From a virus (lineage: Duplodnaviria > Heunggongvirae > Uroviricota > Caudoviricetes): a stretch of DNA of 12,437 bases. Positions 9,106-9,850 of this stretch are shown piece after piece. Within the stretch, counting starts at the first letter, position 1; each line of letters opens with the position of its first letter. Both the position numbers and the translations under genes were made by a program. The stretch lies in the IMG/VR virus record IMGVR_UViG_2671180415_000014; one strand, 5' to 3'. A model generated the notes under the pieces. That model worked only from the letters and a program-made list of their open reading frames with translations, did no database searches and was not told where the DNA came from.

Positions 9106-9850
9106 ATGATTTACACTAATCAGCTTCGTTACAGTGGCAAAGATGGCATCTATTTCCACTTAAGAGACAATGTAGATGCCTTCTTAACCTTATCAGCAAC
9201 TGAAAACATGGAATTTGATAGCCCTATGCAGGTGACTACACAGAACATGCAATTATGAAGGAAGCTTATTATTAACTCGTCAGGGTCAATTAGTAGAAAA
9301 CTTCATTGACACTCTGGAAAACTGGCGTGACCAGAAGCAGATTATTTCTGTTATCTGTAAAGATGGAATTAAAATTGACGATTCCATTATTACCAACTTT
9401 AAAGCCTCTAAAGATGTTACTATCTCTAACGGTCTTCGTATCCAGCTAACTTTTCAGGAAATTAACTTTAAAGCAATCGTAGGTCAAACTGATATTTCAG
9501 CAGCCACTGGCAAAACGGCTACCACAAATGACGGTGGTGTGACCAGTAAGAAGAATGCAGGTAACGTGACCACTGAACGCAATAACGCGCCTATGCTATC
9601 GTGCAAAGAGTTAATGAATATTAGCGATGTATCCGGTTACGCTCCAGCTATCAGAAATGATATTCTCGATGCTCAGATTAAATGTAATAAGGCTTGGAAG
9701 CTGGACTATTCAGACTTAACAGAAGCTGAAAAAACCAACGTCACCAATGCTAATAGTAACGCTGGTCGAGTAGCTTCAAAGCTTAAAAAGTACTCAGTGT
9801 GCAAAATGGCATCTGAATCGATCGCAGTTTGGCATTCGAATCGATCATGA
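9106..9850 (+). pseudogene. Phage tail protein gene downstream of the tape measure, disrupted by a frameshift near 9236-9258 and with its 3' end running into the IS
   Basis: Strong RBS aaaggaga then ATG at 9106. Frame 1 is open to TGA 9256-9258; frame 2 is open from 9236 to 9850 with no ATG/GTG/TTG codon for the first 100 codons. The last 15-20 codons read into the IS left-end sequence. Confidence 0.55.

Follow-up and report, generated by a model that had tools for sequence, protein, structure and literature searches.

The gene at 9106–9799 of the window (the whole stretch of DNA analysed, 12,437 nt) once encoded, as read from its sequence, a myophage-type tail tube initiator homologous to gp18 of Escherichia phage Bas63, and is now a pseudogene. 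Two independent ordinary lesions, a deletion and an IS insertion, very probably made it a fixed pseudogene of Shigella sonnei, with neither a programmed shift nor an assembly error involved. The pseudogene is an ordinary one that fits the known IS-driven decay of S. sonnei, and the gene family is known.

The split gene and its intact homologues

Features of the split gene and its surroundings in the window were as follows.

6769–8949, + strand: tape measure protein gene, intact, 726 aa (Pfam TMP_3, E 2e-21; phrog_4036, E 4e-93)
9094–9099, + strand: Shine-Dalgarno sequence AAGGAG, 6 nt 5' of ATG 9106 (reading of the sequence)
9106–9258, + strand: 5' remnant of the Dit-like tube-initiator gene; native codons 1–49, then a Leu codon made by the deletion and TGA
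9254–9799, + strand: 3' remnant of the tube-initiator gene; native codons 75–256 in the +1 frame, without usable start

Reading frames: frame 1 from ATG 9106 comprises 50 codons and is closed by TGA 9256–9258; in the +1 frame the last stop lies at 9233–9235, after which the frame is open from 9236 to TGA 9848–9850 (205 codons), its first in-frame start codon being GTG 9539, beyond the tube-fold domain. The two frames overlap at 9236–9258 only (23 nt). The earlier note had described a gene downstream of the tape measure split over two frames, namely a 50-codon ORF with a strong ribosome-binding site followed by a long frame lacking a start, with an overlap limited to 9236–9258; this description was borne out in each point, by the stop positions and by family matches in register. 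The 5' piece matched phrog_3721 at profile positions 1–51 (E 4.6e-26) and the 3' piece the same profile at positions 76–258 (E 1.7e-74); with the two pieces thus in register on a single family profile, the two-frame layout is not due to chance. With Pfam Dit_like the 3' fragment gave 33.3 bits over profile positions 65–118 only, and no match was observed for the 5' fragment alone. A complete uninterrupted ORF for the whole tube-fold domain is absent from the window copy (deletion and frame shift), which is predicted to be a pseudogene of the Dit_like/Bas63 gp18 family and not a working member of it.

Gene order: the tape measure gene (6769–8949) is followed by the start of the tube initiator (9106), and the same order is found in phage HK3. 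The tape measure protein is equal in length to its E. coli homologue in locus L001 (strain OkiPb01716).

Intact homologues were found as single uninterrupted ORFs of 257–265 aa in three E. coli strains, one Citrobacter strain, phage HK3 and phage Bas63 (gp18). Apart from gp18 they were:

E. coli OkiPb01716 (L001, 12146–12934): 262 aa, 'phage baseplate protein'
E. coli O177:H21: 262 aa, 'phage baseplate protein'
E. coli strain E47: 257 aa, the closest intact allele
Citrobacter sp. ANG330: 259 aa
Felixounavirus HK3: 265 aa, directly 3' of its tape measure gene

Identity of the gene product: an intact E. coli allele matched Pfam PF21821 (Dit_like) with 73.1 bits (gathering threshold of the model 24.2 bits) over residues 30–147 and profile positions 2–119; phrog_3721 was matched with E 5e-130; residues 5–261 were aligned end to end with chain A of PDB entry 9NDY, 'Tube initiator protein (gp018)' (E 3.6e-114). 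Entry 9NDY is the baseplate of the Felixounavirus Escherichia phage Bas63, solved by cryo-EM (PMC12609058); gp18 forms there a hexamer that serves as adaptor between the C3 hub and the C6 tail, and it consists of a tube-protein fold and a C-terminal extension of ~100 aa spread through the baseplate (PMC12609058). The chromosomal intact allele is nearly identical to gp18 over the N-terminal ~165 aa, and its gene likewise stands directly downstream of a tape measure gene; the alleles differ from gp18 in a diverged C-terminal extension (~100 aa) and in their location, an integrative element of ~11 kb and not a phage genome. The window copy departs further from gp18, being devoid of residues 50–74, frameshifted and clipped by an IS.

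The deletion and the IS21-family insertion

The deletion and the features of the insertion were located as follows.

9253/9254, + strand: deletion junction; 74 bp missing (native codons 50–74, with frame shift), no microhomology
9793–9799, + strand: left copy of a 7-bp target-site duplication, CTCAGTG (the right copy lies just past the window end)
9800–12437, + strand: complete ISSso4-like IS21-family element, 2638 bp, termini TG...CA; its last base is the window end
9817–9927, + strand: left terminal array of ~5 repeats of 19 nt at a spacing of 22–24 nt (CGATC..TTTGGCAT), typical of IS21-family ends
10031–11566, + strand: istA transposase gene, intact, 511 aa (Pfam Mu-transpos_C_2, E 7e-20; same gene call in S. 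sonnei locus L005)
11583–12338, + strand: istB helper ATPase gene, intact, 251 aa (Pfam IstB_IS21, E 5e-60)

Deletion: alignment of the window with E. coli OkiPb01716 and phage HK3 gave a single gap of 74 bp at 9253/9254. The exact breakpoints against the E47 allele (...AACATGCAAT[74 bp]TATGAAGG...) are unambiguous; the window retains native codons 1–49 and resumes at codon 75, the lost residues 50–74 (25 codons) lying midway in the tube-fold domain. The breakpoints were searched for microhomology and direct repeats, and none was longer than 5 nt or in register. The additional 74 bp were present in every top E. coli match among the matches listed, and none of the 5426 complete E. coli genomes contained the 44-mer across the junction; in a collection with one genome per species, whose coverage is too thin to inform, the junction had 0 exact matches. 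The possibility that the 74 bp are an insertion in the other genomes was rejected, because the residues encoded by the segment are conserved in the family profiles (Pfam, PHROG) and in the solved protein of Bas63. The clean 74-bp deletion at 9253/9254 has cut out residues 50–74 and put the rest of the gene in the +1 frame. As the deletion shifts the frame, translation from the good ribosome-binding site is predicted to stop at 50 residues, and the 182 native codons that follow have no start codon of their own. Of the +1 frameshift mutation proposed from the sequence earlier, the change of frame to +1 stands, and the one-base or homopolymer indel does not, the actual lesion being the deletion of 25 codons.

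Programmed frameshifting: tail gene clusters use programmed shifts, e.g. in chaperone G/GT, and a strong ribosome-binding site with a short ORF that overlaps a long frame without start is superficially like a recoding site. A programmed +1 ribosomal shift that would join both frames into a full-length protein, which had been proposed as the lesser option, is nevertheless given virtually no probability: all intact homologues are single uninterrupted ORFs (257–265 aa), the frame change falls exactly at the 74-bp deletion, the 23-nt overlap (CTACACAGAACATGCAATTATGA) contains by eye neither an X XXY YYZ heptamer nor a +1 site of the CUU-UGA type, and a shifted product would still miss 25 residues of the tube-fold core. 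Since the homologues need no shift and the overlap holds no slippery motif, this option is excluded. The likeness to G/GT-type chaperone frameshifts is thus confined to the superficial picture of overlapping frames beside a tape measure gene; the arrangement is not conserved in homologues, there is no slippery site, and the deletion explains the break.

IS insertion: the deletion is one of the two ordinary lesions, and the other is the IS at 9800–12437. The element matches the ISSso4/IS21 family in the order istA and istB, in the domains, in the TG...CA ends and in the terminal repeats at both ends, the inverted partners of the left terminal repeats being found at 12368–12432. The rve domain of istA scored 32.2 bits, just below the cut-off of 32.6 bits. 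The IS is 96.2% identical to a copy in E. coli O177:H21, annotated in RefSeq as IS21 family/ISSso4 family IstB; that copy occupies another site in the same host element and is flanked by a 5-bp duplication, as against 7 bp for the window IS (sister loci). Target duplications of the IS21 family are 4–8 bp long. The true ends of the IS were set by three different right flanks.

In the sister loci of S. sonnei (L005 and L007–L014) the right end of the IS is followed by CTCAGTG AAC CCT AAC AAA AAA TAC TAA, and CTCAGTG was observed on both sides of the IS in nine of the ten S. sonnei loci with this insertion, the right copy lying outside the window; the duplication at the other IS end, which the earlier note had suggested looking for, was found in this way. 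CTCAGTG on both sides shows that the IS arrived by simple transposition, 7 bp of target being duplicated. Just beyond the IS these loci retain the end of the native gene, six codons (NPNKKY) and the stop, unaltered; only six codons are thus displaced and the C-terminus is barely affected. A complete ISSso4-like element has accordingly transposed in six codons before the stop, and the orphan frame now terminates 17 codons inside the IS. The final 17 codons of this +1 frame do come from the repeat-bearing left end of the IS (start at 9800), as had been noticed beforehand. Removal of the native C-terminus by the IS, also proposed there, holds in so far as the IS lies inside the 3' end of the gene, and fails in so far as only the last six codons and the stop were displaced. 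Alignment to intact homologues, the procedure recommended for this question, placed the native end past 9799 and the IS junction at 9799/9800; since the intact homologue extends past 9799, the opposing reading of an IS lying merely downstream of the gene fails. The 44-mer across the IS junction was found in 0 of 5426 complete E. coli genomes.

Divergent copy of the insertion: in the remaining S. sonnei locus (L006, a draft contig, 10714–13285) the left terminal repeat array of the IS lacks 47 bp, and the right flank consists of DUF3302 and mtlA/mtlD/mtlR genes instead of the duplicated CTCAGTG; this flank is either an IS-mediated rearrangement or a mis-assembly.

Occurrence of the allele in Shigella sonnei

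Distribution: the exact 50-aa product, possible only with this deletion, was listed by exact-protein look-up in 2281 blocks of the assembly collection; at least 1000 contigs named S. sonnei carry it, complete genomes included, with annotations such as 'Uncharacterised protein [Shigella sonnei]'. Its presence on at least 1000 S. sonnei contigs, including complete genomes, makes it a fixed allele and excludes an assembly error. The 50-aa 'uncharacterised protein' of S. sonnei annotations is to be understood as the stump of the tube-initiator gene. Region 5757–12437 of the window is 99.985% identical to S. sonnei locus L005 and 100% identical to locus L012 (CP110404.1), except for an extra IS1 in the latter at 9695–9704; CP110404.1 is the complete chromosome of Shigella sonnei S17BD05200 (PMC11125565).

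Window quality: runs of N were found at 264–474 (211 nt), 3132–3361 (230 nt), 4613–4836 (224 nt) and 5482–5756 (275 nt), and with four such runs the window is a draft scaffold; the ORFs lying over them are partly X (2490–3368, 4593–4847 and the 5' part of 5468–6439). The first gap stands between 30-nt direct repeats at 233–262 and 475–504; the complete genome has one copy of the repeat and nothing in between, so that this gap is probably a scaffolding artefact. From 475 to ~1790 the window has 100% identity to another copy of the host element, IS-truncated and lying near yecN/cmoA in S. sonnei; from ~1800 on it has 100% identity to the copy at ymdF-wrbA, the crossover (~1790–1800) falling inside the Dam-like gene; in GCA_040189005.1 the two copies are inverted and ~233 kb apart. 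The switch in the left part reflects either genuine recombination of the inversion type or a chimeric assembly; 5757–12437 is untouched either way.

An intact gene in the organism, its break being an error of the draft scaffold, might be suggested by this low-quality scaffold with its four N-runs and possibly chimeric left part; the chance of it is nonetheless negligible. The lesion is a 74-bp deletion and not a homopolymer slip, region 5757–12437 contains no N, identity with the complete CP110404.1 is 100% and gapless from 5757 to the IS1 point at 9695–9704 (99.985% with another assembly), and independent assemblies give the same truncated product again and again (2281 blocks, at least 1000 contigs). 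Assembly error, on which the case for an inactivated gene might have foundered, was contradicted by an allele carried on at least 1000 contigs and in complete genomes of S. sonnei. The frame break should neither be 'corrected' as an assembly error nor be annotated as a programmed frameshift.

Selection and decay: the surviving codons gave dN/dS of 0.03–0.05 against intact copies, and so low a value for the orphan frame suggests recent inactivation. Loss of function and a recent date of inactivation are probable for the window gene. S. sonnei accumulates IS-driven pseudogenes (Hawkey et al. 2020, PMC7373316), and ~12% of the genes interrupted in this species combine an IS with a second lesion (PMC7373316). 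The window gene is like the Shigella IS/indel pseudogenes of that study in its fixed inactivation, in the combination of an IS with another mutation and in its genomic setting of hundreds of IS copies (PMC7373316); it is unlike them in being cargo of a mobile element, in contrast to a metabolic gene. The finding is accordingly a minor one, i.e., one more pseudogene of S. sonnei with a deletion and an IS, carried as cargo by an already immobilised element.

A functional truncation, in which the 50-aa peptide or a re-initiated C-terminal piece would be kept, e.g. as a dominant-negative agent against Felixounavirus baseplate assembly, is regarded as quite improbable. The allele is fixed and widespread, and neither the ribosome-binding site nor codons 1–49 are damaged, the encoded residues being almost identical to those of the phage; any neutral lesion is, however, expected to fix in a recent clonal pathogen, so that fixation is expected anyway. 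Further IS strikes (the IS1 in eight of ten loci, the IS21 element, the one in the integrase) indicate relaxed selection, and the first in-frame start of the 3' piece, GTG 9539, lies beyond the tube-fold domain.

IS1 in the 3' remnant: the extra IS1 at window position 9695–9704 was found in eight of the ten S. sonnei loci compared (L007–L014, at about 10600–11370); it is absent from the window, L005 and L006 and can serve as a lineage marker within S. sonnei.

The host element and its likeness to Felixounavirus

The gene is carried by a compact element, found at three E. coli chromosomal sites, in S. sonnei and in Citrobacter. The copies were:

window: 1–9799
L001 (E. coli OkiPb01716): 3284–14324
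L003: 5000–18171
L004 (E. coli RM9088): 5251–18664
L021 (Citrobacter sp. ANG330): 444–12326

Gene content: the genes run from a small serine recombinase through a Dam-like methylase, a Rep/DnaD-like protein, several small ORFs, proteins of 236 aa and 68 aa and the tape measure to the tube initiator, which is followed by a large serine recombinase on the opposite strand. The tape measure and the tube initiator are the sole structural genes (E. coli, S. sonnei and Citrobacter copies); no capsid, terminase, sheath, tube or lysis genes were found in the element copies examined. The tail module, which had been thought non-functional, is thus not there to be inactivated, and what stands of that claim is the death of the gene itself. 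Of 5426 complete E. coli genomes, 262 (about 5%) had the tube-initiator gene, every copy examined lying within the compact element.

A decayed full prophage was considered and rejected, since one and the same compact gene set is shared by the Citrobacter copy and the three E. coli copies, each of the latter at a different chromosomal site. The combination taken as the criterion of a satellite, an integrase and replication functions without a complete virion set, was found in the element; no capsid-redirecting or packaging genes were recognised in it by family scans. For the small ORFs, Pfam, PHROGs, NCBIfam and PADLOC returned only the recombinase, the Dam-like methylase and the Rep/DnaD-like protein, with an HNH endonuclease in one genome; no defence-system model was matched in the family scans (PADLOC included) save an orphan methyltransferase.

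Proteins of 236 aa and 68 aa: these were tried as homologues of the Felixounavirus tail assembly chaperones and rejected, BLASTP giving no similarity. The single-sequence AlphaFold2 model of the 236-aa protein (mean pLDDT 68; query with 9 X from an N-run) consists mostly of long helices; a Foldseek search with the model, derived from the same query with 9 X, gave no match at E <= 0.001 among viral structures.

Likeness to phage tail proteins: the chromosomal tube-fold domain has 92–93% DNA identity to strictly virulent Felixounavirus (window 9130–9565; L002 3001–3510). Between E. coli O177 and HK3 this domain gave dN 0.0027 and dS 0.35, being almost identical in protein; dN/dS was 0.008–0.06 at dS 0.25–0.45 (pairs of E. 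coli and HK3). The tube-fold domain appears, on these values, to be under very strong purifying selection relative to Felixounavirus phages. The last ~100 aa of the tube initiator, its C-terminal extension, have diverged and vary between element copies. The tape measure protein has 30% amino acid identity to that of Felixounavirus HK3, with conserved ends (first ~45 residues near-identical; C-terminal LLSSSYPEEE); in Bas63 the C-terminus of the tape measure protein contacts the baseplate hub (PMC12609058). No match to phage DNA was obtained for the other parts of the element.

More intriguing than the pseudogene is the element, whose two tail proteins mimic their counterparts in virulent Felixounavirus under strong purifying selection. 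A tentative reading, to which we give rather less than even credence, is that the ~11 kb element is an undescribed mobile element that might parasitise or block virulent Felixounavirus via tail assembly, the S. sonnei copy being its decayed, immobilised relic. Neither a description of such an element nor one of a Felixounavirus satellite with a tape measure was found in the literature, where the search returned only unrelated ICP1/PLE work. Should the element prove to be a satellite or a defence island, it would represent a new way to exploit or block tail assembly.

IS insertions in the host element: in the ymdF-wrbA copy of S. sonnei an IS3-family element interrupts the large serine recombinase, leaving a catalytic piece of 139 aa and a piece of 423 aa (L005, 13357–16336); with its integrase split, the element is probably immobile there. 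The tape measure gene itself is split by an IS21-family insertion in Citrobacter sp. ANG330 (L021, 5868–9908) and in E. coli RM9088 (L004, 11484–16241); IS21-type elements strike the host element repeatedly, at different positions.
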